From positions 3,808,001-3,872,000 of the forward strand of contig OY759316.1 of the NCBI GenBank assembly GCA_963662275.1: DNA of 64,000 nt. Reading direction: 5' to 3'. The DNA is from Candidatus Cloacimonadales bacterium (GTDB lineage: Bacteria > Cloacimonadota > Cloacimonadia > Cloacimonadales > DAONDQ01). Position 1 is the stretch's first letter, and each line of letters begins with the position of its first letter. The position numbers and the translations under genes are program-made. The notes beneath the pieces are model-generated. The model worked only from the letters and a program-made list of their open reading frames with translations, did not search any database and had not been told where the DNA came from. This document shows, one piece after another, positions 26,749-47,605 of the stretch.

Positions 26749-28338
26749 CTATTTATGTTTGTTAATACGCAGCATTACAAAGGACTTGAGTTGTTTTTTC
26801 TCCCAGCCTTTCAAACTTATCAGGTATGTTGTTGTCAGGTAGAAAATAGAAGAAAGAACAGCATAAATGAGTACTGTGATGAGTTTTTGAGGGTAGGACA
26901 GAATGTATAGTCCTATGGCAAAAGCAAAGCTGAGGATAGCTACAATTACGGTTCTAAAAACAACCGTCTTATAATACTCTAAAATACTGATTTGAGCAAA
27001 ACGGCACGCTTTGGGTATATTGAAAGAGAATGCTAAAATGACATTGGGAATGATTGTACCTAAAGCAACTCCTATTATCGCTGAATCTTTGATCTGGTAA
27101 CCCCAATTTGATAAGATTCCAGGTAATGTATGCATTAAAAGGATACTCAGCCCCAGATTAGCCACAGCTTCGATCATCGCGATACGAGCCAATATCTTGT
27201 GTTCATTTGCCATCAGCAGTACATACACAGAGGACGAACGGAAAAAGAGAAGGATGTACATTGATAATAACAAAAGGATGGCGCATATGATTCCGGCAGT
27301 ATCATTCAAATTAAGCCACAGGTTGAGCAGGGGTTTCACATAAACCAGGAGGGGAATCAAAAGCAACGTTGAGATCATCCCCATTAAACGGTTCGATTGC
27401 AGCATGATTTCTGTCATCTTGGATTTATTCCCTGCTGCAAAGAGTGTTGCCGAAACTGGTCCGAGATTATCCAGGAATTGAGCTGAGAACTTCTGATACG
27501 TATCAGCCAATCGGATAGATATTTGGTAAACTGCCACCATGGCGACGCTGCCAAAGATCGAAATAACGAGCTGATCTGTCTTCATAATGATAATATTCGT
27601 GAAAGTAATGAGATAGGCATAGACTGAAAAACCCATCACAGAACGAAGCAGGGAGCGGTCATAATGCTGCCAGCGAATCTTGAATTCAGGAATGAAACGA
27701 TGCACTACGAGCATCATACTCAAACTTGCACCCAGGTTTGTACCGATGGCAACGAATGCCATACCGACCAGGTTGAGTTTGAAATGAATCATCAGTGCCA
27801 TACCAACGAAATTGAGCGTGATAAAAGTGATCTGGATGAGATTACGAGCATGCATTTTCTGCAATCCGCGCAGGATTTCAGCAAAAAAGCCAAAGGGAAA
27901 AGTGAGTGCAGAACCGATACCGAAGATGATGAGAACTTTTCGGAAATACATGATATTTTCTGCGTGAAAGCCAAAGATACGCTGCAGGTTGAAACTCAGA
28001 ATAACGGAGAAAGCAGCGATGAGAATAGCAAAGAAAGCGTAATTAAAGAAGATCGTGCTGACAATTCGATTGTATTTATTCCAATCCTTAGTCGTGCTGC
28101 ATTCGCTTGTATATTTTTGAATCGATGTACCGAATCCGAAATCCAGGAGAAGAGAATATCCAAATATTGACCACAATAATGCCCAAAAACCATATTCTTC
28201 CCTAGTTAAGCCTAGGAAAAGAATTCGTGTGAGAAAAATGGTAATGAAAATACCAATAATCATCTTTCCATAATTGGAAAGAGTATTGATCAGCATGCGC
28301 TTTCGTAATCCAAGCCCAGGGTTTTCTGCTGTATTCAA
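26749..28338 (-). CDS. wzx: Oligosaccharide flippase (Wzx/MOP)
   Basis: Multi-TM protein with LTREEYG and LLDFGFG motifs; last gene of the polysaccharide operon. Confidence 0.85.
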   Translation of the reverse strand: MNTAENPGLGLRKRMLINTLSNYGKMIIGIFITIFLTRILFLGLTREEYGFWALLWSIFGYSLLLDFGFGTSIQKYTSECSTTKDWNKYNRIVSTIFFNYAFFAILIAAFSVILSFNLQRIFGFHAENIMYFRKVLIIFGIGSALTFPFGFFAEILRGLQKMHARNLIQITFITLNFVGMALMIHFKLNLVGMAFVAIGTNLGASLSMMLVVHRFIPEFKIRWQHYDRSLLRSVMGFSVYAYLITFTNIIIMKTDQLVISIFGSVAMVAVYQISIRLADTYQKFSAQFLDNLGPVSATLFAAGNKSKMTEIMLQSNRLMGMISTLLLIPLLVYVKPLLNLWLNLNDTAGIICAILLLLSMYILLFFRSSSVYVLLMANEHKILARIAMIEAVANLGLSILLMHTLPGILSNWGYQIKDSAIIGVALGTIIPNVILAFSFNIPKACRFAQISILEYYKTVVFRTVIVAILSFAFAIGLYILSYPQKLITVLIYAVLSSIFYLTTTYLISLKGWEKKQLKSFVMLRINKHK

Positions 28339-28605: not shown

Positions 28606-29784
28606 TTATCCATTCCTCGCTTGTAATATTTTATAGAGGATAACCTCTATCTTTTTTTTCACAAGAGAAATCTCGTAATTATTGATAATTTTCAGCCTTG
28701 CCTGATTCCTGATCGTCTCAATTTCATCGAATGGAAGTAACTCCAGCTTCATTATCTTTTCAGCAAGAGCAGCACTTGAACATCTTTCGAAAAGGAAGCC
28801 ATCGGAGCCATTGGAAATAATCTCCTTAGGACCATAAGCATCTGTGGCAATCACAATCAGACGTTGAGCCATGGCTTCGATAATGACTCTTCCAAATGCC
28901 TCTTCAGCCAGGGTTGGCATAAGCATCACATCATAGTCAGGGAAAATGGATTGCAGTTTGAGGCTTTTTCCCATAAAGTGAAAATGCGAATCCAAGTGCA
29001 AGTCTTGAATTAGTTTTCTGCAGGCTTCTCCATATTCAGGATCTTCCTCACCATAAATATCCAAAGTGAATTCGAAACCTGGCTTCTCTTGTAAAATTTG
29101 GCTAAGTGCTCTGATGATGATATCCAACCCTTTCAATGGTTCTATTCTACCAGCAAAAATATACTTTATGGGCTTTGTTAAAACTCGGGGATTATCTTCT
29201 GGAATCCTAATCCCACGGGGTATGACATAGATTTCTTTGCTTCCATATCTCTCAGCTACCTGGCTTTCCATCCATTTTGACAGTACGATGACTGGTTCCA
29301 GGTGTATTTTCCCTCCAATCGTGAAAGGTAAAACCTGCTTCATTATACGAAACAAACGGCTTTTGAAACCTGATGTTACATAAGTTCTGAGCCAAATATC
29401 TCCCAGGTCAAAGACATGAGGCTGTTTAAGATGTTGGATAGCGATCACAGGAGAAATCGACAAAGCCTTCATATTCCCCAGGTAGACTATATCCGGATGC
29501 AATTGCTGAATCAGTGATTTTGTGATACGATAATTAAACACTTCCACACGATGCTTATCAAAAAAAGAACCATTGAGATAATCTATGTATCTGAGAATCC
29601 GCAGAGGCTTGTTTGGTTTGATGCTGCCAATTTCTTCACTCGGATTATCAATTCCTTTGATGCCGCAAAGAATATAGACTTCATGACTTTGCTCGTTCAT
29701 GTAATCCATTGTCTCTTTTACCGAGATTTCATAGCCTCCTTCAAAATAGGGAGGGTAATAATTGGAAATGCACAGTATCTTCAC
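28606..29784 (-). CDS. Glycosyltransferase family 4
   Basis: YYPPYFEGGYE, FAGRIEPLKG and EAFGRVIIEAM (EX7E) motifs. Confidence 0.9.
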   Translation of the reverse strand: MKILCISNYYPPYFEGGYEISVKETMDYMNEQSHEVYILCGIKGIDNPSEEIGSIKPNKPLRILRYIDYLNGSFFDKHRVEVFNYRITKSLIQQLHPDIVYLGNMKALSISPVIAIQHLKQPHVFDLGDIWLRTYVTSGFKSRLFRIMKQVLPFTIGGKIHLEPVIVLSKWMESQVAERYGSKEIYVIPRGIRIPEDNPRVLTKPIKYIFAGRIEPLKGLDIIIRALSQILQEKPGFEFTLDIYGEEDPEYGEACRKLIQDLHLDSHFHFMGKSLKLQSIFPDYDVMLMPTLAEEAFGRVIIEAMAQRLIVIATDAYGPKEIISNGSDGFLFERCSSAALAEKIMKLELLPFDEIETIRNQARLKIINNYEISLVKKKIEVILYKILQARNG

Positions 29785-29786
29785 GA

Positions 29787-30188
29787 TTATCTCCTTAACA
29801 TACCATTAATAACATCTATCAGATGCTTATCGGGATAGATATTGATGCCCAGATAGGATTTTATTAGGTATAGCATGAAAAGAATGACGATTAACATCAT
29901 TAACAAAATAAAAATATAGGTAAAGGCTTTGGCAATGTAAGTAAGACCCTTGTCCATGCTGCCTCTATCCATAGCTTTGAATTGGTTTCGATTATCTTTT
30001 CCGAAGATAATGACGAGATACCAATATCTGAAAAACCAAATTGAAAAACGAATATCAATAATACCACGGGATGGTACAGGAGGAAGCATACGCTTCATTA
30101 ACCCCATTAATTCCTTACGTTGTTCAAAGGTTAGGTTTTCGGTATTCTTCTTGTTAGAAATATTATTCTGATCAGGAGTTTCTATCAT
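29787..30188 (-). CDS. Small membrane protein of unknown function
   Basis: IDIRFSIWFFRYWYLVIIFGKDNR segment plus a C-terminal TM helix; 2-bp gaps to both neighbours. Confidence 0.7.
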   Translation of the reverse strand: MIETPDQNNISNKKNTENLTFEQRKELMGLMKRMLPPVPSRGIIDIRFSIWFFRYWYLVIIFGKDNRNQFKAMDRGSMDKGLTYIAKAFTYIFILLMMLIVILFMLYLIKSYLGINIYPDKHLIDVINGMLRR

Positions 30189-30190
30189 TT

Positions 30191-31579
30191 TTACCCATTG
30201 TTCAGAGCTAGGGACTCTGTTGTTAGCTGTTGAGAGATTTTTTTGTTCTTTTGTGTATTTCTGATTGATAGCTTCTTCAAGACTGCGATTAAAGCAAAAA
30301 TGAGCATGAGTTGGTAAAAATTATTGGTTTGCTTGAGAACCCACTCTAGAGTGGATTCCGTATAGATTGCCAGTAGACCTCCAATTAATCCTATCGAGAA
30401 GAACTGATAGTCTGTTTTTTTATACCTGAAATAATTCTGAATATTCATGAAATAGAAGTAGAAAAGGAAGCAGAAAAAGATGAATAGTGTGTGCCAACCG
30501 CATTCAGCTGCGATCATTAAATAGATGGTTTCCACCAAGCCATTTTTCTCATCAGGATCATCAGGATTCAGCATCTCAATATGATTGCTATACTGCCAGG
30601 GCGGATTGATCTTGATACCGAAATTATTCAACCCAATCCCCAAAGGTTTATCCTTCACCATTTTCAGGGCTGCAATAGCAAGTTCCTTACGCACATTTGT
30701 TGATTCTTCAGGAGCTGTTCGAAATCTCTCACTGATAGAATCCCAAGCCTGTACCAGGACAACGATACCTAAAATGAGCAAGAGAAACGTGACCCCCAGT
30801 TTTTTCATAGAGAAACCGCTGGAAAAGGATAGAATTAAAACGATACAGATAGACAACGCATACAGCACCATTCCTGCCCTGGATAGTGTTGATATCACAA
30901 CGACGGAGATCATGCCGAAGAGAATCAGCCACACAAAGAACTTAATGAATTTAACATTCTTTTTGTTCAAAAGATAGGAAAAGACCAAAGAACCGAGAAT
31001 GATTGAATACATAACCAGTGAGTTCTGATGCGGAAAGGGACCTGACGATTGAAACTTCCCCTGCACATACTTCTGTACCATCACCTGGTAGAAGATAAAG
31101 GCAATAATTGCAGCCACACCCCTCATAAAGTCATTGAATTGCTTATAATCGTTTACGTAATTATAGATAACAAAGAAGTAAACAAACATCCTCATCATCT
31201 TCCAAAGTTCAAAAAGTGAAAAGATGATGACACTTGAATTTACGATAGATAGGGCACTGAAGGCAAAATAGGCAAAGAAAATATATGATCCAGGCGGTAG
31301 GTGAATGGGGTATTTGTTTTTACGGTGCAGAACTAATAGTAAGATCACCGTTGTTGCAATATCAACCATTCCTATTTCAAAGCCTTTTGAAGTTAATCTG
31401 AAAGTTTCGCGTGATACAAAGTTGATATCCTGCATCTGGATGGTGAAAAACACCATCAAAAAGAAGATGACTTTCTCAACCATAGGGTTTTTAAGTGAAA
31501 GAAAATAACCTGAGGGAACTCCAATCAGTAGAACTGCAAAGAAAACGAAGTATTTAACATTGGATAGCAGGTCAGTCAT
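30191..31579 (-). CDS. O-antigen ligase/Wzy-type polymerase
   Basis: Multi-TM protein; GPFPHQN, TLSRAG and PLGIGLNNF motifs. Confidence 0.85.
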   Translation of the reverse strand: MTDLLSNVKYFVFFAVLLIGVPSGYFLSLKNPMVEKVIFFLMVFFTIQMQDINFVSRETFRLTSKGFEIGMVDIATTVILLLVLHRKNKYPIHLPPGSYIFFAYFAFSALSIVNSSVIIFSLFELWKMMRMFVYFFVIYNYVNDYKQFNDFMRGVAAIIAFIFYQVMVQKYVQGKFQSSGPFPHQNSLVMYSIILGSLVFSYLLNKKNVKFIKFFVWLILFGMISVVVISTLSRAGMVLYALSICIVLILSFSSGFSMKKLGVTFLLLILGIVVLVQAWDSISERFRTAPEESTNVRKELAIAALKMVKDKPLGIGLNNFGIKINPPWQYSNHIEMLNPDDPDEKNGLVETIYLMIAAECGWHTLFIFFCFLFYFYFMNIQNYFRYKKTDYQFFSIGLIGGLLAIYTESTLEWVLKQTNNFYQLMLIFALIAVLKKLSIRNTQKNKKISQQLTTESLALNNG

Positions 31580-31709: not shown

Positions 31710-32771
31710 TTAATTACCACCTGCTTTCTGGATCATATCATTAACGAACCATGCGGATTGAAATGCTTGGAGACTGGGTAGTGCCATAGTTACAACATCA
31801 TTCCATTTCGCTATTGGATTCTTGGGAACAAAGATAATATCATTTGGTTGTAAGGCGAAATCAAATTTTCTTGCATGCATGATAGCTCTGACATGTATTT
31901 TGTAGAGATGTGGACTGGAAAGACTACCCCTGATGACATATACGGTAGATATAGCAGTTGATTTAAATCCTTGAGCAAATGAGATGCTCTGCAACAGCGT
32001 CATATTTTCCTGGTAAAAGAAATGACCCGCCAGATTCACTTCACCCAATATATATATTTCCTTGCTGGTAGCGGAAGGCACATAGATGTAGTCTTTATCG
32101 ATAAGAGGAATATTATAACGGGTATTGCCTTTTTGAACAAGTTCAACAAAATCTATTGGTAGAATCTTATTGTCACGAGTCAGGAAAGTTCTTTCCAAAT
32201 CAGCCAGTTCAATGGTGGCAGTTGGATAATATCCCAAAGCAAAACCTCCGGCATTAGCGATTGCATCAAGTACTCTCATGCTTCCTGAAATCTTGAAAGT
32301 GCCCGGATGCATGACCTTTCCTAAGAGTGTTACTGTTGAATTCCTGGTTTCAATTAGAATGATTGATACCTTGGGATACAGTAAATATGCCTGTAGTTTA
32401 TGTTCAAGCAACGTTGTGGCTTCAGCGATAGTGAGTCCTCCCACCTGCACTTCACCGACCAGGCGAAAGGATAGAGTCCCATCCTCTTTCACTATGACAA
32501 CATCTGTATCCAGCTCCGGTTCATCATAGACATAGATTTTCATCTTATCCCCCGGCTCAAGCTTGTATGGAGGCAAGACGATATTGTTTAAACTGTCTAT
32601 TTGTGCATAAATTGTATCCTGGGACGTGATCTGAGTTTCTTCCAGATAATCAGGTGTGATTTTACGATTTACTTTACTATTCGACAAGCCTTTGTTTGAT
32701 GTGCATGATGCGAATAGGAAGATACTCAACATTAATAAAATTAGCTTGATTGGTGTATTTATTTTTATCAT
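31710..32771 (-). CDS. wza: Polysaccharide export lipoprotein (Wza/OPX)
   Basis: LFASC lipobox, YKLEPGD poly_export motif, SLBB repeats. Confidence 0.88.
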   Translation of the reverse strand: MIKINTPIKLILLMLSIFLFASCTSNKGLSNSKVNRKITPDYLEETQITSQDTIYAQIDSLNNIVLPPYKLEPGDKMKIYVYDEPELDTDVVIVKEDGTLSFRLVGEVQVGGLTIAEATTLLEHKLQAYLLYPKVSIILIETRNSTVTLLGKVMHPGTFKISGSMRVLDAIANAGGFALGYYPTATIELADLERTFLTRDNKILPIDFVELVQKGNTRYNIPLIDKDYIYVPSATSKEIYILGEVNLAGHFFYQENMTLLQSISFAQGFKSTAISTVYVIRGSLSSPHLYKIHVRAIMHARKFDFALQPNDIIFVPKNPIAKWNDVVTMALPSLQAFQSAWFVNDMIQKAGGN

Positions 32772-32775
32772 GCTA

Positions 32776-34773
32776 TTACTCTTTTGGAAAGAAGTCTTTA
32801 TGTACATAATTTAAAACTCCATAGACATTTGTGAATTTTCTCTCTTTCAGATATTTGTTGATTTTTACCAAGCTGCTTCTACTGCTCCTCTTGAAACGGC
32901 CTACCATAATGAGGGCATCTGCAGCAGTGACAATACTAGAGAAAAGCAACGGACTGTGCTGGTAATCGAAAAGCTCCCAAAAAATATAATCATACTCCGT
33001 TTGAGAATCGAGAAATGCACTGACTCGCTTGGAATCTAACAAGAGAGAAAAGACATGTTCGTCTGATAAAAAATAGGCATGGGATATGTTTGAGCTTCGT
33101 TTTTGTATTTGATATTTATCCGTGATATCGTAGAGGTAGTTGTTGAGCAAATATGGTTCTGTATCGGCAGTAGGGATTTGGATGGAATCAATGTACAGGA
33201 TTCTTTTCTTCTGATCTGACAGCATTCTGATAATGTCACAAATCAGGAAAGACTTACCTGTTTCCGGGACATCACTCCCAAAAGCTAATACTGATTTCCG
33301 ATTATCACTCGAAAGGCGCATAATGTTATCGACAAGTACCTGTAGATTTTTTAAATACACATTCTTTTCAAATTGATCTTCATCGGGTAACAGTCCGATT
33401 AATGGCATCATTCCGTTACCTGAAAAATCCTTATCGGATTTGAGATAAGGATCTAGAATTTCCTTTCCGATAACAAAGACCGAACATAGCCCAAAAATCA
33501 ATATTCCTATCCCCAGTACCACCATTTTGCGGTTTGTTCCTTCAGGAAACACGGGAGGTTTGGCTGACTCTATGATCTCGTAATCACTGACATTCGACTG
33601 AATTGACATCTGTGATTCAGCCAACCTGGCTTCAACGATGCGAAGAATATCACGATTCAGTTGCAGTTGTCTATCTATCTCCAGAAATTCCTTCTCCACG
33701 GTTGTCAGATCGCCCAGGGAAGTTCTAATACTATCAATTTTAGTTTTGAATTCTTTATTCATTTTCAGTGAAGCCTGTCTTTCAGCTTCAAAACGTGATT
33801 TATCAATGGTATAGACATCCTTCAAACCACTGGGTCCCCATGTTTCCGCATCCGGCAGATCACGGGAATCTCCGCTCGTTGTTTTCTGAAGCTCCCTGAT
33901 ATCATCAATTACTTTACTTACCTTGGGATTATCATCCGTATATCTGGTTCTTAATGTTTCCAATTCTCTCTGTAAATCCAACAGCCTTCTCTGGTCTGTC
34001 TGCGAATAAGTCCAATTCAGCATATTTTTGGCTGGAACATCCGCAAGCTTCTTGTTCATTTCCGATATTTTGCTATCCATTTCTGTTGCTTTTAACTGGT
34101 TTTTAATCATCTCAATTTCGACTTCTTTCAACTGGTCAAACTTGCTTTGTGATTCCTGGGAAACCGAGATGACACCATATTGTTCACGAAACTGATCGTT
34201 TTTGAACTCCAGGTTCTGAATTGCTAACAATCTATTTTGTTTCTCCTGTAAGTAATACTGATAGATTTTTTGAGTGGCTGAATTCATGAGCCTGATATTA
34301 TTCGTAATAAATGAAGTCGCTGTTGCATTGGCAATCTTAGCTGCCATTTCACGATCAGGCCAAGTAGCCGTAAAGCTGAGAACACTGGATCGATTGCCAC
34401 GCTGTACATCAACAGCTTTGAAGAGGGCTTCGGGAGTTGTTTTTAAATCCAGTTTTTTGATGACATCTACTAGCACATCCCTGATTCGCACAGTTTCAAG
34501 AACTGTATGTATATCAAAAGTCTGATAGAGATAGGGCATTTCAACCGGAGTGGACATATTTTTAGGAGCCATGATCATGAAACATCGTGCTTTCCAGGTT
34601 GGAGAGATATTCACTTTTGCCCAGATACCAGCTATAATCATGCAAATAATAGTGAAAATGATGATGTACCGTATTTTTTTACGATACACAATGAAAAGTA
34701 TCCTGCGATCAATAATAAGAGAAGGACCGCTGGATTCCTGACTTTCTTCGACAGATGTATTTTCGTTAGACAA
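32776..34773 (-). CDS. Polysaccharide co-polymerase (GumC/Wzc-like) with degenerate kinase domain
   Basis: Two TMs flanking a coiled coil, YTDDNPKV, C-terminal ETGKS; TTG start after GGAG. Confidence 0.8.
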   Translation of the reverse strand: MSNENTSVEESQESSGPSLIIDRRILFIVYRKKIRYIIIFTIICMIIAGIWAKVNISPTWKARCFMIMAPKNMSTPVEMPYLYQTFDIHTVLETVRIRDVLVDVIKKLDLKTTPEALFKAVDVQRGNRSSVLSFTATWPDREMAAKIANATATSFITNNIRLMNSATQKIYQYYLQEKQNRLLAIQNLEFKNDQFREQYGVISVSQESQSKFDQLKEVEIEMIKNQLKATEMDSKISEMNKKLADVPAKNMLNWTYSQTDQRRLLDLQRELETLRTRYTDDNPKVSKVIDDIRELQKTTSGDSRDLPDAETWGPSGLKDVYTIDKSRFEAERQASLKMNKEFKTKIDSIRTSLGDLTTVEKEFLEIDRQLQLNRDILRIVEARLAESQMSIQSNVSDYEIIESAKPPVFPEGTNRKMVVLGIGILIFGLCSVFVIGKEILDPYLKSDKDFSGNGMMPLIGLLPDEDQFEKNVYLKNLQVLVDNIMRLSSDNRKSVLAFGSDVPETGKSFLICDIIRMLSDQKKRILYIDSIQIPTADTEPYLLNNYLYDITDKYQIQKRSSNISHAYFLSDEHVFSLLLDSKRVSAFLDSQTEYDYIFWELFDYQHSPLLFSSIVTAADALIMVGRFKRSSRSSLVKINKYLKERKFTNVYGVLNYVHKDFFPKE

Positions 34774-35899
34774 GTTCACTCTCCATGGTTTTTCTGATAT
34801 CTGTGATCGATTGAATATTCTCGGGTATCTGTCTATTGGATAACATAATTGAATAGGAATGGATGGCATCAGGATGATAACCATGCATGCCCGGAATGAC
34901 TTTTAAACCCATGTAACTTGGGTTGATCAGGATTCCTTCATTCATCAGGAAGAACATCTCTCCAAAGAGATTATGAGGAAAAGAGACTCTCAGCTTTTTC
35001 ATCTCTTCATCACGAACGATGTAGCCACTGGAAACCTTTTGTAATGCCGTTGTGATATCTTTCTTTGCCTGATCATTGAAGAACCAGAATCTTGCCATCG
35101 TCGAATCATAAAACCCGATGTAATCTTTCCCATATTCATAGCCCAAAGCCGTAATATCCTTGACCAGGTCATATGAACCTGTTACAGGAGCCATGCCATG
35201 ATCAGAAATGACATACAGACTCACTTCATCATAGAGTTTACCTGCAAAGCGATAAAGATCTTCAATTTGGCTTTCCAGGGAATGCAGCTTATCCTGGGTG
35301 GCTTGTGAAAATGGTCCATGAGCGTGCATGACACTATCAAGTTTCGGCAGATACACATAAACGAATTTTACTTTTGCCTCTGAAATCATTCTTTTATTGG
35401 CAATCAGCACTTCAGCTTCCGATTCTCTCCAGTTTGAACAGTAATAGGGAATATCCTTTTCAATACACCAATCGAAGATAGTATCTGTCTTTAATATTCC
35501 ACCTGGAACGAAGTAATCTCTCTTTTCCAAGTAATCAAAATATGGCAGGTACCGAAAAGGTACGCTATAAAGCTCAAAATACCCGGTATAAGAATTGAGA
35601 CGTTTAATGATTTTACTGAGGTTATGGCGCACTCTCCATCGATCAAATACTGTCGGCAGCATCGCCATATATTTCATCCATTTGAATGGAGAATTCTCAG
35701 GGTCATAAATAAAACTCGACCAATGAGTATGTTCATCCGGATATCTGCCTGTAAGTATGGAAGGATCAGCAGCAGAGGAAAAGCCGAATGTGGTTTGCAA
35801 ACGTCGGGAGTTAGGAGCTACCTTATTCAGGAAGCCGTACTTTTGATAGATTTCCCATCCTAATGCATCTATAAAAACATACATGGCGAGTTTTTTCAT
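34766..35899 (-). CDS. Alkaline phosphatase superfamily protein (nucleotide pyrophosphatase/phosphodiesterase type)
   Basis: FIDALG, SILTG, DSVMHAHG, SDHGM and GMHGY metal-ligand motifs; no signal peptide. Confidence 0.85.
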   Translation of the reverse strand: MKKLAMYVFIDALGWEIYQKYGFLNKVAPNSRRLQTTFGFSSAADPSILTGRYPDEHTHWSSFIYDPENSPFKWMKYMAMLPTVFDRWRVRHNLSKIIKRLNSYTGYFELYSVPFRYLPYFDYLEKRDYFVPGGILKTDTIFDWCIEKDIPYYCSNWRESEAEVLIANKRMISEAKVKFVYVYLPKLDSVMHAHGPFSQATQDKLHSLESQIEDLYRFAGKLYDEVSLYVISDHGMAPVTGSYDLVKDITALGYEYGKDYIGFYDSTMARFWFFNDQAKKDITTALQKVSSGYIVRDEEMKKLRVSFPHNLFGEMFFLMNEGILINPSYMGLKVIPGMHGYHPDAIHSYSIMLSNRQIPENIQSITDIRKTMESELV

Positions 35900-35908
35900 G
35901 ATAAACTC

Positions 35909-37048
35909 CTAATTGTATCTCTGCCACAAGCGTACAAAACGCTTTTGCAGGAGTACGGTATCCTCTGTGTGACTCAGCCCAAGTTTCTGACAGAGCTCTT
36001 TGATGTCCATGTTCTCTCCAAAAATCAGCCAAGGTAAAGTATAAAACAAACGGAGACGCGGATAGCTTTTAAATAATGTCCATTCAAATCCATTGGCTCT
36101 GGTGTCTTTCAGGTTCAAAGCCAGATTCTTCAGATTGCTCAATAGTCCATTATCTCCTAGATGAGTGTTCCTCAATTCTTCAAGGTAAACTTGATAATCA
36201 ATTTGATCTATACAAAAAAACAAAGCCCACATTTCAAAATACACGTCCTTGAACATACTGACAGCTTCCTGGTGCCGATTATACAAGATATCAGATGTCT
36301 CGGGTTTAATCTGAGGTTGCAACTTAAAAGCCATAGCTTCATGGAAGCGGGTTTTGAATTTATCGTTGGTCGTATATTTTGAAACATCAGTGTTATGGAT
36401 GCGTGATATTCTCTCGACATTCGACCAATGATATGTACCCTCGGCGATGAGAATTGCCTCTCCTAAAGCCTGGTAAGCTTTATGTATGTTGCGATTGATA
36501 AAATCATATTCGCAAGTTTCCTTGCCTGTATCTAGATATTCTTTAGCAAAATATAATCCCATTGCTCGATTCAAAAGCAGCTTCAGGGCTTCCATCAGGG
36601 GAATCTGATTTCCTTTCCAGTCAGGTAGATACCGGAGTATGTTCTCTCTTCCATAAATCACTTTGTGCCCCTGTTTGAGGTCATACCACATCAGTGTGAA
36701 AGGTGCTTTGGGAAGAGTATCAATTGCCTTCAAATCTGAAAAATCAATATCCACTCCATATTTCTCACTCAATTCATGATGCAAATCCTTCAATTTGTGC
36801 TCGATCTGTTTTTTTTCCCAAGGGTGAAGTTTCTTGGAGATAACGAAGAAATCCATATCATTGTATAGCTTTTCACCCTCTAGTGTTTGCAGCACTCCTC
36901 CTTCACCTCTGCCGTATCCACCACCCAGGATGAGGGCATGAATGTTCACACAATCAATTACCTGCTGAAACTTTAAACTGATATCAGCAAGAATGGCAGC
37001 TATGTATTCATCAAATGAGTCTGAGCCATAAACAGAATATTTACTCAT
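35909..37048 (-). CDS. Pol-beta-superfamily nucleotidyltransferase-like protein
   Basis: LILGGGYGRGEG...NDMDF and a distal DIDF; helical C-terminal domain. Confidence 0.7.
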   Translation of the reverse strand: MSKYSVYGSDSFDEYIAAILADISLKFQQVIDCVNIHALILGGGYGRGEGGVLQTLEGEKLYNDMDFFVISKKLHPWEKKQIEHKLKDLHHELSEKYGVDIDFSDLKAIDTLPKAPFTLMWYDLKQGHKVIYGRENILRYLPDWKGNQIPLMEALKLLLNRAMGLYFAKEYLDTGKETCEYDFINRNIHKAYQALGEAILIAEGTYHWSNVERISRIHNTDVSKYTTNDKFKTRFHEAMAFKLQPQIKPETSDILYNRHQEAVSMFKDVYFEMWALFFCIDQIDYQVYLEELRNTHLGDNGLLSNLKNLALNLKDTRANGFEWTLFKSYPRLRLFYTLPWLIFGENMDIKELCQKLGLSHTEDTVLLQKRFVRLWQRYN

Positions 37049-38522: not shown

Positions 38523-38861
38523 CTATTCACTTTCAAAACTGAGTATTGCTGCATCCAGATCGTCGAAAATATCAAATATCTTATGTGCGCGTGTAATGTC
38601 GAAAACCATACGTGGCTTATCTTGTAAACACGCGATCCTGACATCTCCACCACCTTGCGAGGCAGCCTTTAAACACGCCACTATTGTTCCTAAGCCAGTA
38701 CTGTCGATAAAGTCGCATTCTGCCAAATTGAGAACAAAGTTCGTTGCTTTTTCCGATGCTTGCTCAAAGACAGTTTTTAATTCAGGTGCATTGTACGCAT
38801 CCAATCGACCATATACTTCGATAACTCCAACGTTGCCTGCTAGTTTGAATTCAGTTTTCAT
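38523..38861 (-). CDS. STAS-domain anti-anti-sigma factor
   Basis: GRLDAYNA and FIDSTGLG with the phosphorylatable Ser. Confidence 0.9.
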   Translation of the reverse strand: MKTEFKLAGNVGVIEVYGRLDAYNAPELKTVFEQASEKATNFVLNLAECDFIDSTGLGTIVACLKAASQGGGDVRIACLQDKPRMVFDITRAHKIFDIFDDLDAAILSFESE

Positions 38862-38927: not shown

Positions 38928-39659
38928 CTAATAGGCACCTTTTCCGCCAATGACGGCTGGTATGGTTTTTAAAAGAATCATGACATCATTCCAGAAGCTT
39001 TGGCTTCTTATATAGCGCATATCAAGCTGAACCTGCTGTTGAAAAGGTATATCACTTCGTCCGCCAATCTGCCAAAGGCAGGTAATACCGGGTTTGACAT
39101 GCAATCTTTTTCTATCTTCCAATGTATATTCCAACACTTCCCGAGGTAAAGGTGGTCTTGGACCAACCAGGCTCATATCACCAACCAGTACATTGATTAA
39201 CTGTGGTAATTCGTCAATGCTGAATCTACGGATGATACGCCCAATCGATGTTACTCTCGGGTCGTTTTTCATCTTGAAGATAACTCCATCTTTTGATTCA
39301 TTTTGTTCAATCAATTTATCTTTCATTTTATCTGCATTTACATACATGGAACGGAACTTGATGAAACCAAAAGTAATTCCATTCAGTCCGACCCTTGGAG
39401 CAGTATAAAACACGGGACCAGGATCAGTAAAATAAATGATCAGTGCTGTAAGGATAAATATCGGTGATAAGAGGATAAGAAGGATCAGGGATGCAAGAAA
39501 ATCCAATGCTGTTTTTAGAAATTTCGCAAAACTAACAGTCCATTCCCAAACAGATATCTTGAGACGCATCTGTAGTTGGTTGCGTTTCTTATTCAAAAGC
39601 ATGAGACGCTCAATTTCCTTAATTCTCTGTCTTTGAACCAATCCGTTTTTCGGAGACAT
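38928..39659 (-). CDS. Priming sugar-phosphate transferase (WcaJ/EpsE-like)
   Basis: KFRSM, DPRVT, DELPQL, SLVGPRP and KPGIT motifs. Confidence 0.92.
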   Translation of the reverse strand: MSPKNGLVQRQRIKEIERLMLLNKKRNQLQMRLKISVWEWTVSFAKFLKTALDFLASLILLILLSPIFILTALIIYFTDPGPVFYTAPRVGLNGITFGFIKFRSMYVNADKMKDKLIEQNESKDGVIFKMKNDPRVTSIGRIIRRFSIDELPQLINVLVGDMSLVGPRPPLPREVLEYTLEDRKRLHVKPGITCLWQIGGRSDIPFQQQVQLDMRYIRSQSFWNDVMILLKTIPAVIGGKGAY

Positions 39660-39692: not shown

Positions 39693-41021
39693 TTAAACAG
39701 TCCTATTCATTTTCCAACGAAAAACCCTAAACAAAAATAATGGGTTGCCGATGATATACCGTTTCCACATTCTTTTAGGTTCTTTCATAAGCCTAAATAC
39801 CCATTCCAATCCTATCTGTCTCATCCAAAGAGGGGCTCTAGTAATTCTATCAGAGTAAAAGTCAAATAAACCTCCTACGCCCATTTGGATGTTGGCATTT
39901 ATTGAATTTCCGTAACGAGTAATGAATTTCTCTTGATTGGGTGCCCCAAAAGCTACAAGCAGGATATCTGTACCAGCTTGGTTTATCTCAGAGATAACCT
40001 GATCTGCTTCCTTTTCCCAATTAAAGAATCCATGCCTGGTTCCGCTAATCTCCAGTTTTGCGTATTTTTGCTGCAATTTAGCTTTCATCGTTTCTGCTAC
40101 AGAAGGACCAGCACCTAAAAGATAGATTTTGTATCCCTTAGATTGTGCTAATTCACATATATGGGGCAGCATATCCGTACCATTTAAGTTTTGACGTAAA
40201 GGAGTTCCCAGCATTTTCCCGGCGAGATTGATCCCAATTCCATCAGGGAACACCACTTCGTTCATTTGTAAAATACGATAATAGTCTTTGTCAATGAAAA
40301 CCTTGTTTAAACAATCGGGGTTCACAAAAAAGACAGGTGTCTTATGCTTATCGGTTAGTCTCTGGTCAATCAGTTCAATTGCCTCACTCATCATGATGTT
40401 GAGCATTTTAATGCCAAAAATATCAATTTCTCTATCATGATTCTCTTCAGTATGATGATATAGAAGAGCTGGAATGGATAGCAGAAGCAGCATTAAATCA
40501 CTTAAGCCTTTTCGGTGATGCAGATAATCCCAGTCCGTTTGATTTTGTGTTCCTGCTGCGATTCGTGAACTGCTCTGAATGAAGTGAAGATTGATGATTC
40601 CTGGTTTGAAACGCAACAGCCAGGGATCACCTTCCATGATATTTACTGTTTCGTAATCCCTAAAACTTACGCCGACAAGACTCAGTTTTCGGGAAAGCAC
40701 ATGAATAAATAGAGAAGAATGCCGAGGTAGCCAAGCATTTACATTGAATAATTGAAGCTTCAAAGGTCTAGCATCGGCACCGTAAATCATCTTTTGGACG
40801 AAAACATCTTTACCTGTAAATAACTTACGAATGCTAAGAATGAACAAGCTGGGGAGGGTAAAGACAAGTATGAAAAGAATACTCAATAAGATTTCGATGA
40901 TGGCATATAGACAACGGACAAGGAACAACCCGATATCTTGAGGAAGGAGGTGAAACCTGTTTTTAGGTGAACGACCTAATCTTTTCTCAAAAGTTTCAAG
41001 CTGCCTGATGTCTTTATTCAT
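39693..41021 (-). CDS. WecG/TagA/CpsF glycosyltransferase with N-terminal degenerate sugar-transferase domain
   Basis: PDGIG, GAPNQE, GVGGLFDF, RAP and LEW...EPKR; N-terminal LSLVG...KPGI. Confidence 0.88.
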   Translation of the reverse strand: MNKDIRQLETFEKRLGRSPKNRFHLLPQDIGLFLVRCLYAIIEILLSILFILVFTLPSLFILSIRKLFTGKDVFVQKMIYGADARPLKLQLFNVNAWLPRHSSLFIHVLSRKLSLVGVSFRDYETVNIMEGDPWLLRFKPGIINLHFIQSSSRIAAGTQNQTDWDYLHHRKGLSDLMLLLLSIPALLYHHTEENHDREIDIFGIKMLNIMMSEAIELIDQRLTDKHKTPVFFVNPDCLNKVFIDKDYYRILQMNEVVFPDGIGINLAGKMLGTPLRQNLNGTDMLPHICELAQSKGYKIYLLGAGPSVAETMKAKLQQKYAKLEISGTRHGFFNWEKEADQVISEINQAGTDILLVAFGAPNQEKFITRYGNSINANIQMGVGGLFDFYSDRITRAPLWMRQIGLEWVFRLMKEPKRMWKRYIIGNPLFLFRVFRWKMNRTV

Positions 41022-42195
41022 TTTTGCCGATCAACTCAGCTAGAGGTTCTAATAACGAATTGGAATACTTCTCAAAGTTATAATCCCTTTCTACCATCTG
41101 ATATCCTGCCTTGCCATATTTCAAGCGAAGCTCTTTATCATTGAGTAGTGTTTTCAGGGCAATCGCAAACTTCGCATAATCACCAGGTCTCACGAGAAGC
41201 CCGTTCACCTTGTGCTTTAGCCATTGTGGAATACCCCCATTGGCAAACGCAACGACTGGCTTTTTATGGGCAAATGCTTCCAAGCCAACCAAACCAAAAG
41301 GCTCCTGCCAACGCGATGGGACTACCACGATATCTGCCTGATCATAGATTTCAGAGACATTAGCAGTCCAGCCTACAAATTCTACCTTCTCATTCAACTT
41401 CAATTCGCATGCCAATTCCTCTAAAAAGAGCTTATCGTTGCCTTGTCCCACAATCTTGCATTGGAAAGGTTCTGAAAGCAATGAAAGCGACTGGAGCAGG
41501 AGATCGACTCCCTTTCCTCTTACCAATTGCCCAACGTACAGAATTATCGGACAGGTATTATTAACTGCCTCATTGATCGGCACGATGGGTTGATAGGGTA
41601 TAAGCTTTTTGATTTTCCTTTTGTCCCATCCATTCATGATGAGGTTATGTTTCATATAATCAGAAAGAACAAAACTCAAGTCACATTTCCGAATCTGCTG
41701 CAGCATGCGATAGCGCTGGTCTAAATCTATCAAGCTGATCTTGCCATTTTTCTTTTCAATCATACCCGCGCAGATTGAGCAATAAATCATGGAAAAGGGA
41801 AGAAAGCAGTTTTTGCGGATAACGGGGTAGTACTTATGCCTTCTTAAACAATAATAATCATGATCATGCACGATCACCACTGTTAGAAAGTGCTTTTGAA
41901 GGGTCTTGACCCATTTCCAATGATTCGTCTTATGGATGCAGACATATTGTATTCCGATGGACTTATATTGCGTGATGAGTTGCTCGATATCGTCTTCTTT
42001 ACTAATCGTTACATCTTCAAAAGCTGCATCGAAGAGAGGATCTTCAAAGACAGTATTTTCGAAGAGACCATACACTTGCCAGCCATGTTGCTTGAGCGTC
42101 TCTGCCATATTGACCATGAGTCGCTCAACACCGCCGATAAAACCTCGGCTGCTATTCAGCATGAGTATTTTGGGATGCTTCCCAAGATGCTCCAT
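41014..42195 (-). CDS. Glycosyltransferase family 4
   Basis: GGVER, VGQLVRGKG and EPFGLVGLEA motifs. Confidence 0.9.
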   Translation of the reverse strand: MEHLGKHPKILMLNSSRGFIGGVERLMVNMAETLKQHGWQVYGLFENTVFEDPLFDAAFEDVTISKEDDIEQLITQYKSIGIQYVCIHKTNHWKWVKTLQKHFLTVVIVHDHDYYCLRRHKYYPVIRKNCFLPFSMIYCSICAGMIEKKNGKISLIDLDQRYRMLQQIRKCDLSFVLSDYMKHNLIMNGWDKRKIKKLIPYQPIVPINEAVNNTCPIILYVGQLVRGKGVDLLLQSLSLLSEPFQCKIVGQGNDKLFLEELACELKLNEKVEFVGWTANVSEIYDQADIVVVPSRWQEPFGLVGLEAFAHKKPVVAFANGGIPQWLKHKVNGLLVRPGDYAKFAIALKTLLNDKELRLKYGKAGYQMVERDYNFEKYSNSLLEPLAELIGKNE

Positions 42196-44576
42196 TACCT
42201 GTTTCCCTGTTTATTCTTGAGAAGTTTCTTATAGGTTTGAGAGTATAATCCAATTAAGTATTCGTATGTGTATTTGCTCATGACAAGTTCTTTCCCCGTA
42301 ACTGCCATTTGGGGGAGAAGCTCTTTGTTCTGATATGCCAGGATCATTTTCTGTGAACATTCATGAACATCTTCACTCTTGAAAATATAACCGTTCTTTC
42401 CTTCCACGACGAGGTTGGGATCGACTACATCACTTTGCAGGACGGGAGTATCGCTGATCCAGCTTTCCACAACAACGGCACCTGAATTCATGAAACGAAC
42501 AGGAATCACGTGGATGTCAGAATATCGCAACCAGCCTAAAACTTCATCACGTTCCACCATACCCGTAAAAAACACCTTATCTTGAAGAGAATTCTGCGCA
42601 ATAAAGGCTTGCATATCAGCATAAAAGTCTTTTTCATAATCCGTTCTTCCAACGAATACGAGTTTTGCATTCGGCATATCTTTTGCAGCTTCTCCGAATG
42701 CTTTTAAAGCGATATCCTGACCTTTAATATTGGAAACTCTTCCCAAGCTCAGGAAGATAAAGTCATTCTCGGTAAAGCCCAGCTTTGAGCGGGGATTTGC
42801 TACGGGAGTACTGTATTCATCGGGAAGAATGGGTACCGGTGAATACTCAATCTTGGGATTAAATTGCTTAATAAATTGAATCTCTTTTTCCGCAATGGCA
42901 AACGCGTAATCCATTCCTTTCAGAACGATTCTCTGATATAAACTGGGATGAACACTTTTGAGAATGTTCGGATCAATTCTTCCCTCTGTTTTCGCTAATC
43001 CAGCATAATCAATGAAATCAAAGAAGCAGAGGATATAGGGAATCTTTCTTATCTTTGCTGCAATGAAGGTGATCACATTATTATAATTCAAGGCTGGAAA
43101 ACACTGGATGATGTCATAATCACTCTGAAGCAGATAGAAAAACAATTCAGGGCATAGTGTTTTCGAGGACAGGTTCGGGTAGCGGGGAGGAATATTGAAA
43201 ACATCCTGCATCCTGATGATTCTGAAACCATCAGTAAGTTCCTCTTTGGGTTTATCGATCCTCTTGGGACAGATAACTGTCAGGTCATAATCTTTGGCAA
43301 GCAGCCTGGCTTGATAATAAATATTGGTTTCAGCTCCCCCTACTTCCGGGAAGAATCGATTTGTGATAATGGCAAGTTTCAGTCTTTTCCCCGTAATCTG
43401 TGTAGTCGCTGGCTTTACATCCTGGTTTAGTTTAGCTATCAGTTCTTTGGCAACGACCTCTGGAGCATATTGGCTCACAGCTTTGGTATACAGCTTTTTC
43501 CCCATCGTTATTGCTCTCTCGGGATTCTCGATCAGATCAATCATACTTGTGGCAAAAGCATCTGCAGTATCCTGTATCACCACTTCATCGGGTTCAAAAA
43601 GAAATCCTTCAACGCCGATCGTGGTTGTTATCACTGCTTTCTCTACGGCAGCAGCTTCCAATATTCGTGTCCTCGTTCCCGAGGCGATTCTCAATGGGAG
43701 AACGACGAACAGTGAATTTGCAATTTGAGATTCAATATCTTCAACAGGTCCAATGACCTTGATTCTCTCTCCGCCAAATTGGCTATGTATGGAGCCTGGA
43801 TTCTTACCAACGATATAAACACTGATGTCTTTTTCTTTCAACACGCTTTCGATTCGCGGATAGATCTCTTTTACAAGATAGAGATAAGCGTCCTGGTTCG
43901 CCATGGAATCCAGTGTTCCAAAGAAGAGAATGTAATTTTCCTCTTGTTTACGTGGTGTAATTGTCCGAGTCGCTTCCTTGGGCATCATATTGGGTATGAT
44001 ATAGGCGTTTTCGGGTAGCAGATGATAGTCTCTAATTGCCATATCACGTTCTAAATAATTCGTAAAATAGAAGGAAAAGTTACTAGTGAATGCTTTCTTT
44101 TCAAATGCTTTTAGTTTGATCATTTCCAGCAGATGATAGCGATTGTGAATATTCTTATTATCCTGCCATGAAAGCTCTGAAATACGTGAAAACAGCATAT
44201 CAACATCGATGGCTATCTTACAATTAGGGAGAGTTTTCTCGGCAATTTCAGCCAAATGATAGGTACTAAGAAAGCGAAAAACAATGATATCATATTGATG
44301 GAGCTTTAGTAATTCTTCGAACTTATGCTTCTGTGAATTGTGAAATTGATAGATTGCTGAAGACTGATAAGGAAGAGATTTTGTAATGACAAGATGGAAA
44401 TTATGGATGTATCCGCTATGCTCAGGAGCCTTTTTGAATGCGTATTCAGGAGCTAAGAGAAGCAATAGGTCTGCTTCATATTCTTTCCTTAAAGTACTCC
44501 AGATAAAATTGCTGCGGTTTTTATCCCCACCCTTAATATTGGCAAACGGCACATCGACATACAAGAGCTTTTTCAT
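42195..44576 (-). CDS. Double-domain GT4 glycosyltransferase, first gene of the EPS operon
   Basis: Two GT-B units (SGTRTRILEA; GRVSNIKGQD...GAVVVES); GAGGT RBS before ATG 44576. Confidence 0.85.
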   Translation of the reverse strand: MKKLLYVDVPFANIKGGDKNRSNFIWSTLRKEYEADLLLLLAPEYAFKKAPEHSGYIHNFHLVITKSLPYQSSAIYQFHNSQKHKFEELLKLHQYDIIVFRFLSTYHLAEIAEKTLPNCKIAIDVDMLFSRISELSWQDNKNIHNRYHLLEMIKLKAFEKKAFTSNFSFYFTNYLERDMAIRDYHLLPENAYIIPNMMPKEATRTITPRKQEENYILFFGTLDSMANQDAYLYLVKEIYPRIESVLKEKDISVYIVGKNPGSIHSQFGGERIKVIGPVEDIESQIANSLFVVLPLRIASGTRTRILEAAAVEKAVITTTIGVEGFLFEPDEVVIQDTADAFATSMIDLIENPERAITMGKKLYTKAVSQYAPEVVAKELIAKLNQDVKPATTQITGKRLKLAIITNRFFPEVGGAETNIYYQARLLAKDYDLTVICPKRIDKPKEELTDGFRIIRMQDVFNIPPRYPNLSSKTLCPELFFYLLQSDYDIIQCFPALNYNNVITFIAAKIRKIPYILCFFDFIDYAGLAKTEGRIDPNILKSVHPSLYQRIVLKGMDYAFAIAEKEIQFIKQFNPKIEYSPVPILPDEYSTPVANPRSKLGFTENDFIFLSLGRVSNIKGQDIALKAFGEAAKDMPNAKLVFVGRTDYEKDFYADMQAFIAQNSLQDKVFFTGMVERDEVLGWLRYSDIHVIPVRFMNSGAVVVESWISDTPVLQSDVVDPNLVVEGKNGYIFKSEDVHECSQKMILAYQNKELLPQMAVTGKELVMSKYTYEYLIGLYSQTYKKLLKNKQGNR

Positions 44577-44608
44577 ATTCACCTCTTTACGAATCATACC
44601 AATTACAA

Positions 44609-47443: not shown

Positions 47444-47605
47444 TTCACAGACCTCCATTTTTAATTAAACTATCTACATATTAATGTAACAGTACCCAAA
47501 AGCAAAGGAGATTTAAAGTCAGCAATTCGAGCATTCCTGCTGATCATCTCCCTTATCATATAACAGCGAAGATTCTTTTTACAGCAATCCATTCACACGG
47601 ATTTC

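Follow-up and report, generated by a model that had tools for sequence, protein, structure and literature searches.

In a 64,000-nucleotide stretch of a Candidatus Cloacimonadales genome (GCA_963662275.1, contig OY759316.1, positions 3,808,001 to 3,872,000; referred to here as the window), two neighbouring genes of an exopolysaccharide (EPS) operon encode a nucleotidyltransferase (NTase, P0001) and a phosphodiesterase of the nucleotide pyrophosphatase/phosphodiesterase (NPP) clade (P0002). Both have recognisable folds and intact catalytic residues, and the pairing of their families is real, as seen in their phyletic co-occurrence, their shared membership of conserved EPS clusters and their gene fusions. 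We put the chances at about even that the two are functionally coupled and serve, in the cytoplasm, as a glycan-tailoring module of a widespread Wzx/Wzy-type EPS system; which acceptor and which nucleotide are involved, in which direction the phosphodiester is cleaved and what part the operon's uridine kinase gene (udk) plays are what we infer. The Wzx/Wzy pathways are regarded as well mapped. Described here is a large nameless NTase family without a studied member that is tied to a cytoplasmic NPP-type phosphodiesterase by co-occurrence and fusion, and in which the folds and the type of tailoring enzyme are known and the chemistry is uncharacterised and possibly new.

P0001 carries the motifs GGGYGRGEGG, NDMD and DIDF, and has the G43/G44 loop, the D64/D66 pair and the third carboxylate (D102) of the Pol-beta superfamily. 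Among 38 diverse homologues G43, G44, Y45, G46, E49, G50, G51, N63, D64, D66 and D102 are invariant in the NTase part, as are E153, N160, R161, R186, N187, K190, K242, N308, R331 and W375 in the helical part. The AlphaFold (AF2) model (predicted local distance difference test (pLDDT) 94.9, predicted template modelling score (pTM) 0.92) was ranked by Foldseek closest to spectinomycin, streptomycin, kanamycin and lincosamide nucleotidyltransferases, MntA and HalB (ANT(9) 6xz0, E 1.9e-5). VIA alignment placed an NTase domain before a HEPN-like bundle (2hsb, Z 12.1; see Table 1 for the boundaries), with matches to ANT(3'')(9) (7uy4; Z 12.0, root-mean-square deviation (rmsd) 3.5, 219 aligned), ANT(9) (6sxj, Z 11.5), ANT(4') (6nlt, Z 9.9), 3jyy (Z 8.9), DrrA (6yx5; Z 11.1, rmsd 6.9), HalB (9dbh; Z 10.4, 197 aligned), GlnE (Z 9.4 for 3k7d and 8.9 for 1v4a, rmsd ~6 Å) and HEPN and MNT chains (Z 9–12). 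NTases with a helical acceptor domain attach a nucleoside monophosphate (NMP) to hydroxyl groups of proteins or of small, sugar-like molecules, and the fold matches together with the invariant residues indicate that P0001 is, as modelled, a catalytically complete NTase of this 'NTase plus helical acceptor domain' kind. The first-pass annotation, which had proposed a Pol-beta NTase with a helical C-terminal domain, is borne out by the motifs, the model and the structural matches to ANT, MNT, HalB and GlnE proteins.

A close, characterised homologue of the NTase would have refuted the same annotation, and none was found: sequence comparison of P0001 gave no hit in Pfam (E ≤ 10), NCBIfam or the PDB. 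The GlnE and GlnD_UR_UTase models were likewise unmatched in Pfam at E ≤ 10, as were the curated KNTase/ANT sequence models (Pfam E ≤ 10, NCBIfam), and the 379 aa hold no further (HD or second NTase) domain. A 38-sequence profile gave only chance matches when compared with the PDB (ribosomal protein L10, E 0.0073; T4 lysozyme, E 1.1). There was no Pfam match to LicD/fukutin and no such chain among the structural matches listed, although absence from this list does not exclude a similarity. The RxxxxH HEPN nuclease motif is absent from P0001, and only R186, N187 and K190 are conserved in that helix. ESM Atlas returned unnamed clusters only at 0.98, with the nearest named cluster (PF01909/PF18765) at 0.88 serving as a lead only. 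We identified 505 homologues at E ≤ 0.001 in a 90%-clustered collection (with a Pfam domain in none of the 120 listed), and of 1.84 billion 50%-cluster representatives 3034 match the family at E ≤ 1e-3, 2129 at E ≤ 1e-10 and 908 at E ≤ 1e-30. Neither P0001 nor P0002 found a match by tblastn in a plasmid collection, and full-text literature searches turned up no publication that deals with the pair or with one of its families (subscription journals and supplements lie outside their coverage).

P0002 matches PF01663 at 59.1 bits (cut-off 23), and the family has profile matches to ENPP7 (3.1e-8) and ENPP6 (4.8e-8). The P0002 model (pLDDT 95.4) aligned with the NPPs (ENPP6, ENPP4, ENPP7, Xac NPP and ENPP1) at Z 27.5–29.4 (~315 aligned, rmsd 3.0), with phosphonoacetate hydrolase at Z 25.2, PafA-type phosphatases at 21–22, phosphoglycerate and phosphopentose mutases at 16.8–17.4 (phosphopentomutase 16.8, cofactor-independent phosphoglycerate mutase (iPGM) 17.0–17.4), EptA/MCR-1 at 15.7 and sulfatases at 14–17. 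The predicted fold is therefore that of the NPP clade and not of the mutase, sulfatase or phosphoethanolamine (PEtN)-transferase clades. D11, S41, H57, D188, H192, D233, H234 and H339 are invariant in 28 sequences including members of ~40% identity, and so is a family-specific Y264-D265-S266-T267 (YDST) motif. In a HMMER alignment of low score S41 falls opposite the Thr of 'MTSPCH' in ENPP7, presumably the NPP nucleophile. Because strand 1 of the model, which carries D11, begins at residue 3, P0002 has no room for a signal peptide and is predicted to be cytoplasmic. The earlier description of an NPP-like enzyme with its metal ligands, a Ser and no signal peptide is thereby upheld, with the six ligands and S41 invariant.

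Relatives of P0002 are numerous (2543 matches) and include proteins of 57–86% identity in Cloacimonadota, Shewanella, Poseidonibacter, Sedimentisphaera and Pseudomonadales records. Cross-phylum identity is 57–86% for the NPP as against 29–56% for the NTase homologues when compared with P0001. The conservation of the NPP suggests a tightly constrained, small-molecule-like substrate, and possibly also reflects horizontal spread of the cluster. A PglZ/BREX or Hailong-like defence role was considered and dropped (PF08665 19.9 bits, below the cut-off of 25; PADLOC found nothing for four cluster proteins).

The two genes belong to a minus-strand operon running from ~47458 to 26749, in which the Wzx/Wzy-dependent EPS set is complete (Bac_transf, Wzx-like, Wzy_C, chain-length-determinant models below cut-off, and Poly_export). 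The first-pass annotation had placed the pair within an EPS operon, and it is indeed surrounded by genes for a phosphoglycosyl transferase (PGT), a STAS protein, a polysaccharide co-polymerase (PCP), Wza, Wzy, Wzx and GT4/WecG-type glycosyltransferases (GTs). The 9-bp gap between the NTase and NPP genes was also as described, and an AGGAG ribosome-binding site that overlaps the NTase stop codon ahead of the P0002 gene suggests that the two are translationally coupled. The P0002 stop codon (TAA, 34768–34766) falls within the co-polymerase open reading frame (ORF), as the overlap with the co-polymerase start claimed earlier requires; the start is likely to be a GGAG-preceded TTG at 34773, which would give an 8-nt overlap with P0002.

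Our survey of related loci started from the NTase in one genome per species and confirmed it at 505 sites; the best 80 were retained (many of these loci are on truncated contigs), and related loci were compared by tblastn with 16 window proteins. The recurrent order was GT4-GT4-WecG-PGT-STAS-(466-aa protein)-(udk)-NTase-(NPP)-PCP-Wza-Wzy-u133-GT4-Wzx. Among the best 80 of the 505 loci, the 466-aa protein was present in 55, PGT in 52, Wza in 50, Wzy in 44, STAS in 42, PCP in 38, NPP in 36 and udk in 27; PCP was directly downstream of the NTase in 26, and udk or the 466-aa gene directly upstream in 22 and 18, respectively. Loci from Verrucomicrobiota, Spirochaetia, Hydrogenedentota and Planctomycetota have the NTase and NPP in one cluster with a shuffled order. 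The NPP gene adjoins or lies near Wzx in Verrucomicrobia, Victivallales and one gammaproteobacterium, and three loci (L055, L136 and L132) contain triplets of an alkaline phosphatase-superfamily (AlkP) gene, a GT2 and the NTase. EPS clusters with the NTase come from at least seven lineages of phylum rank named in the records (Cloacimonadota, Lentisphaerota/Victivallales, Verrucomicrobiota, Planctomycetota, Hydrogenedentota, Spirochaetia and Gammaproteobacteria), with one labelled as an Akkermansia muciniphila metagenome-assembled genome (MAG). Cultured carriers are named in the records both for NTase loci (Haloferula luteola, H. sargassicola and Prosthecobacter fluviatilis) and for the NPP (Shewanella violacea, Poseidonibacter lekithochrous and Sedimentisphaera cyanobacteriorum), and the function is therefore directly testable.

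Co-occurrence was counted in all 232 Cloacimonadota genomes, where the NTase was found in 53 and the NPP in 54, with both in 51 and neither in 176. Both families are thus present in 51 of the 56 genomes having either, the others being two with the NTase alone (G170 and G171) and three with the NPP alone (G111, G121 and, at E 2.5e-7, G117). In family f3 both genes occur, and are adjacent, in the same 20 of 98 genomes. In family f12 the NPP is found in 15 of the 17 NTase-positive genomes and the NTase in all 15 NPP-positive genomes, and the two are on different contigs except in G145. In five genomes whose cluster has no NPP beside the NTase, the NPP gene was located at another site (close to a Wzx homologue in two genomes, at the cluster head in one, and with no obvious EPS context in one; the fifth is represented by L085). 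Of 400 Gammaproteobacteria sampled, five have an NTase match (one weak and partial) and four an NPP, and all four NPP carriers have the NTase; it should be noted that this sample was centred on a genome picked for its NTase, and that three of the four co-carriers are independent. All of these counts take in related, non-independent genomes and are given without a P-value. In G145 we also note a 346-aa GT4-like gene between the 466-aa and NPP genes (L091:10514-11554, minus strand) and a divergent NTase homologue (31% identity, ORF of 419 aa) ~11 kb off on that contig.

The pairing is also seen within single polypeptides. Six longer relatives of P0001 were retrieved (P0246–P0251), of which P0248, P0249 and P0251 (785–805 aa) have an N-terminal PF01663 domain and a C-terminal NTase, and P0250 (1054 aa) adds an N-terminal S-adenosylmethionine (SAM) methyltransferase to the NPP-NTase arrangement. 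P0246 and P0247 are GT2-NTase fusions with an N-terminal GT2, as are P0317, P0355 and P0360 among 50%-identity representatives. P0248 aligns with P0002 over residues 8–371 (28% identity, E 2e-39, including a DSTMARFWF motif) and with P0001 over residues 420–656 (32% identity, E 2e-21), and profile-profile comparison for the fusion gave a probability of 100 (E 8.9e-55). A metagenome scan with the fusion alignment returned 74 loci, with one-ORF fusions in 15, separate NPP and NTase genes in another 15 (0.9–2.2 kb apart in 14 of them), NPP only in 41 (many of these being short contigs or distant paralogues) and neither in three. The fusions are unlikely to be assembly artefacts because they were found on 15 separate contigs.

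The contexts of the fused genes again favour a link to glycans. In L106 (9956-12364) and L110 (9941-12397) they come directly after flagellar genes (flgA...fliW), a layout which looks like a flagellin glycosylation island, and others (L109, L114, L115 and L120) lie among GT41/TPR, GT4, GT2, methyltransferase, sulfotransferase and epimerase genes. In L136, where the genes are unfused, the order is STAS-NPP-GT2-NTase-...-WecG-PGT-GT4, and a GT2 also separates NPP and NTase in L055. The flagellar genes ahead of the fused NPP-NTase are flgA, H, I, N and K, a flagellin-like gene and fliW, and in L110 the fused gene precedes one for an 1863-aa GT2-TPR-GT4-radical SAM/SPASM protein.

We prefer a glycan-directed role for the module because the NTase is fused to, or sandwiched with, GT2s and a methyltransferase and because the module is also found in loci without STAS. 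In the mechanism we propose, the ANT-like NTase would use a nucleoside triphosphate (NTP) to O-nucleotidylylate a hydroxyl, either on a sugar in the undecaprenyl-linked repeat unit or on a substituent that is to be added to this unit, giving a sugar-O-P-O-nucleoside phosphodiester and pyrophosphate. The NPP enzyme would process this phosphodiester at the inner membrane face before Wzx flipping, most likely leaving a phosphate-type anionic group on the glycan and freeing the nucleoside ('cover-uncover' phosphorylation), or alternatively taking the NMP off again. The udk copies adjacent to the NTase would then salvage the freed uridine or cytidine. That surface glycans are O-nucleotidylylated on the cytoplasmic face, converted by the NPP to a phosphate-type decoration and the nucleoside salvaged by the cluster udk is, taken as a whole, rather unlikely in our judgement; if true, it would be a kinase-independent route to phosphorylated polysaccharides and flagellar glycans, and to methyl-phosphorylated ones where the methyltransferase is fused.

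The window's udk qualifies as a true equivalog (296 bits; cut-off 180) and is the only full copy in the genome, and the presence of udk beside the NTase in related loci is a hint that the module makes or consumes a nucleoside. As a system-specific gene udk had to be rejected in general, since it is above cut-off in 193 of the 232 Cloacimonadota genomes with or without the cluster. Only extra, cluster-embedded copies carry weight, which we regard as suggestive, and family f5 genomes do have a second, extra udk copy.

A number of observations weigh against the glycan-tailoring module. The first-pass annotation had called for a neighbourhood survey, and while the pair proved to be conserved together and linked to EPS genes through co-occurrence, clusters and fusions, strict adjacency is a minority arrangement, with the NPP directly downstream of the NTase in only 10 of the 71 loci with room for it. 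In family f5 the NPP homologue (~43% identical) lies 0.14–1.8 Mb from the cluster, and of these loci five have no homologue of the window's cluster proteins in the vicinity, whereas two have a long PGT-like gene within 4–6 kb. The fused NPP domains (P0248–P0251 and the metagenome ORFs) keep the six metal ligands, but their nucleophile position is occupied by L, V, G or Y (Ser in 0 of the 12 that have this column), whereas Ser is found there in 11 of 13 unfused NPPs with an NTase in the same locus; the fused-branch domain may therefore not act as a classical covalent phosphodiesterase, and may differ in mechanism or be a binding module. The window's udk is at the cluster edge as well as being the sole full copy, and its link to the module may be incidental. 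The NTase fold fits protein AMPylators (DrrA, GlnE and MntA) just as well, the classical NPP reaction releases NMP and not a nucleoside, and we know of no report of an O-nucleotidylylated polysaccharide. Full-text searches of the literature found no biochemical or genetic datum for either family.

Two readings had been put forward in the first-pass annotation, of which the glycan-directed one fits better given the GT2 and methyltransferase fusions, and the other, a writer/eraser switch, is weakened for a STAS target by the presence of SpoIIE and HATPase_c_2 genes. In such a switch the NTase would nucleotidylylate a Ser or Tyr residue in a protein that regulates or assembles the system (STAS at Ser54, the tail of the co-polymerase, or the PGT or pseudo-PGT) and the NPP would remove the NMP, gating EPS initiation or polymerisation. 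This is consistent with the resemblance of P0001 to DrrA (Z 11.1), GlnE (Z 9.4 and 8.9) and MntA/HEPN-MNT proteins, with the invariant D-S-x-G-L-G of the cluster STAS, and with the co-polymerase gene that directly follows the NTase in 26 of the 80 loci and whose product has a K-x-Y-[YF] tail. STAS proteins do regulate Bac_transf enzymes, and a recent preprint (10.64898/2026.04.08.717354) describes All4160, a Bac_transf fusion protein whose STAS domain is under the control of ordinary Ser phosphorylation. However, a GAF-SpoIIE-HATPase_c_2 protein is encoded close upstream of the module in L136 and L132, with one or two genes parting it from STAS (L136) or the NPP gene (L132), and in a Haloferula locus (L039) such a regulator is encoded in the interval from the 466-aa-type gene to the NPP. 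The window's genome encodes a 543-aa SpoIIE plus HATPase_c_2 protein, other HATPase_c_2 genes, two SpoIIE domains and two further STAS genes. From these genes and the All4160 preprint, it is most likely that STAS answers to a conventional kinase/phosphatase and not to the NTase/NPP pair. Since STAS is found in only 42 of the 80 NTase loci, and the module occurs in STAS-free loci and in fusions with GT2 and methyltransferase domains, we consider the switch unlikely. A complex prediction for the NTase with STAS scored 0.00 against a mark of 0.32 and was counted neither for nor against binding.

Other explanations give the pair a different chemistry or none in common. The NTase might make a nucleotide messenger (a linear oligonucleotide or NMP adduct) which the NPP degrades, with the 466-aa pseudo-PGT, through its degenerate nucleotide-sugar-binding domain, as the receptor controlling initiation; this would agree with the match of P0001 to the signal-synthesising HalB, with the hydrolysis of nucleotides and cyclic dinucleotides by NPP enzymes (ENPP1 entries), and with the frequency of the 466-aa protein (55 of 80 loci), whose catalytic motifs look degenerate and whose gene is directly upstream of the NTase in 18 loci and just beyond udk in most of the 22 where a udk copy, which also speaks for this reading, takes that position. 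We hold this to be improbable, as a synthase fused to its own degrader, or to a GT2 or methyltransferase, is not what a messenger system predicts, the fused genes are found in loci without the 466-aa protein, and the receptor role is purely hypothetical. We give a similarly small chance to a precursor pathway in which the AlkP enzyme is a sugar-phosphate mutase and the NTase an unorthodox sugar-1-phosphate nucleotidylyltransferase that provides a nucleoside diphosphate (NDP)-sugar for the GT2. The AlkP-GT2-NTase triplets and GT2-NTase fusions would suit this, as would weak PF01676 'Metalloenzyme' matches in two fused proteins and the degenerate look of the cluster's own NTP_transferase-like domain, but P0002 is far nearer to the NPPs than to phosphopentomutase or iPGM, the catalytic Ser that must be phosphorylated in a mutase is missing from the fused branch, and there is no GT2 in the window's cluster; we also know of no sugar-1-phosphate nucleotidylyltransferase with a Pol-beta fold. 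Finally, the recurrent one-polypeptide fusions, and a co-occurrence that holds where the genes are unlinked (f12) and in Gammaproteobacteria, make it very improbable that these are independent accessory genes which share a mobile EPS cluster without functional coupling (with the NPP, for example, a housekeeping nucleotide-sugar hydrolase), even though family f5 and certain Victivallales genomes have the NPP well away from the cluster, and the NPP is much more conserved than the NTase across phyla. The remaining probability lies with explanations outside those considered here.

Comparison with known systems places P0001 nearest to the aminoglycoside and lincosamide NTases (ANT(3'')(9)/AadA, ANT(9), ANT(4')/KNTase and LinB), which also have a Pol-beta domain followed by a helical HEPN-like acceptor domain, give the best whole-protein structural matches, and move NMP to a hydroxyl of a sugar-like small molecule. 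P0001 differs from these in sharing only 8–14% identity, in having ~100 extra C-terminal helical residues, and in its polysaccharide rather than resistance context. An NTase with a helical domain is also seen in the GlnE/GlnD/DrrA AMPylators and uridylyltransferases and in MntA-HepT, and the GGYGRGE loop of P0001 appears to resemble the GlnD motif, but the whole-protein rmsd to protein AMPylators is 6–7 Å, and a separate NPP partner takes the place of the HD or second NTase removal domain. P0002 shares its fold and bimetal ligand set with the NPPs (Xac NPP and ENPP4/5/6/7/1; PF01663). Characterised NPPs are typically secreted or ecto-enzymes with a Thr nucleophile, whereas P0002 has no signal peptide, a Ser at the nucleophile position, 12–18% identity, the YDST motif, an EPS cluster context and relatives fused to NTases.

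Two further systems are similar in logic and have unrelated folds. In the mannose 6-phosphate (Man-6-P) route, GlcNAc-1-phosphotransferase and the uncovering enzyme build a phosphodiester which is then trimmed to a phosphate, and in the chain terminator WbdD a kinase is joined to a methyltransferase, so that phosphorylation and methylation are combined as they might be in P0250, an analogy which is hypothetical. STAS-controlled initiation of polysaccharide synthesis reportedly occurs with SypA/SypE in Vibrio fischeri and resembles the window, as does the All4160/HenR/Alr3423 system of Anabaena, in having STAS by a Bac_transf enzyme in an EPS cluster; these systems have no NTase/NPP pair, and the window's STAS is a separate gene with an unlinked regulator. 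Papers listed for such systems are PMC4517449 and PMC10120452.

Should a phosphodiester or phosphate substituent be what the pair installs or edits, this would be new tailoring chemistry with a bearing on EPS charge, biofilm properties, phage and immune recognition, and thousands of 'hypothetical' annotations. If it is instead protein-modifying or signal-making, it would be a new layer of control over EPS synthesis.

Table 1. Features of the window. The operon genes are listed in their order of transcription, from the LruC/DUF4842 gene to the Wzx-like gene, and are followed by genes outside the operon.
Feature	Position	Strand	Remarks
LruC-domain/DUF4842+DUF4114 protein	45473..47458	-	Operon head
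Uridine kinase (udk)	44829..45443	-	Cluster head; equivalog score 296 vs cut-off 180
Three glycosyltransferase genes	39693..44597	-	Double GT4, 800 aa, 42195..44597; GT4, 41014..42195; WecG/TagA-type, 39693..41021
Initiating polyprenyl-phosphate phosphoglycosyl transferase (PGT, Bac_transf)	38928..39659	-	
STAS (anti-sigma antagonist-like) protein	38523..38861	-	Conserved DSTGLG (Ser54)
466-aa protein P0243	37090..38490	-	Degenerate NTP_transferase-like domain, left-handed beta-helix, hydrophobic (predicted membrane) segment, degenerate Bac_transf-like domain
NTase P0001, 379 aa	35909..37048	-	Pol-beta-fold domain ~9–140, HEPN-like four-helix bundle ~150–280, further helices; unnamed family
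Spacer of 9 bp between the P0001 and P0002 genes	35900..35908	-	
Phosphodiesterase P0002, 377 aa	34766..35899	-	Predicted cytoplasmic, NPP-clade alkaline-phosphatase superfamily; ligands D11, D188, H192, D233, H234, H339; S41 at nucleophile position
Polysaccharide co-polymerase (GumC/PCP-like)	32776..34773	-	C-terminal P-loop-like domain; start uncertain, longest ORF to 34884
Wza-type exporter	31710..32807	-	
Wzy-like polymerase	30191..31579	-	Wzy_C
Conserved 133-aa unknown (u133)	29787..30188	-	
GT4	28606..29784	-	
Wzx-like flippase	26749..28338	-	NF041503, E 6.5e-10, below cut-off
CHASE4-HisKA-HATPase_c-REC hybrid histidine kinase	47606..49819	-	Directly upstream of the LruC/DUF4842 gene
Group II intron reverse transcriptase/maturase ORF (RVT_1 + GIIM)	21875..23206	-	~3.5 kb past the EPS operon end
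MULE-type transposase	54867..56309	-	Upstream of the cluster region
DDE_Tnp_1 transposase	61097..62419	+	Upstream of the cluster region

Several other features of the operon and its surroundings can be noted. The 466-aa protein looks like a double pseudoenzyme, with an NTP_transferase-like N-terminal domain lacking the G-x-G-T-R loop and, behind a hydrophobic segment, a C-terminal Bac_transf-like domain with D-K at the position of the PGT D-E dyad. The gene directly upstream of the NPP in L132, by contrast, encodes a bona fide NTP_transferase+LbH protein (E 2.6e-55). The N-terminus of the WecG/TagA-type transferase matches the end of Bac_transf (profile positions 94–177, E 2.2e-5), and the EPS cluster has three Bac_transf-like domains of which one only is complete. 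The ~200 C-terminal residues of the co-polymerase (ORF 32776-34884, minus strand) form a P-loop-like domain with …PETGKS… and YDYIFWE…, and the tail has the short, semi-conserved K-x-Y-[YF] in place of a tyrosine cluster. The Walker lysine is replaced by S in two co-polymerase relatives (L011 and L024), and this may be a degenerate BY-kinase module. The CHASE4-HisKA-HATPase_c-REC kinase may be a sensor for the EPS cluster, and a DUF4842 homologue also adjoins the unlinked NPP gene in L090.

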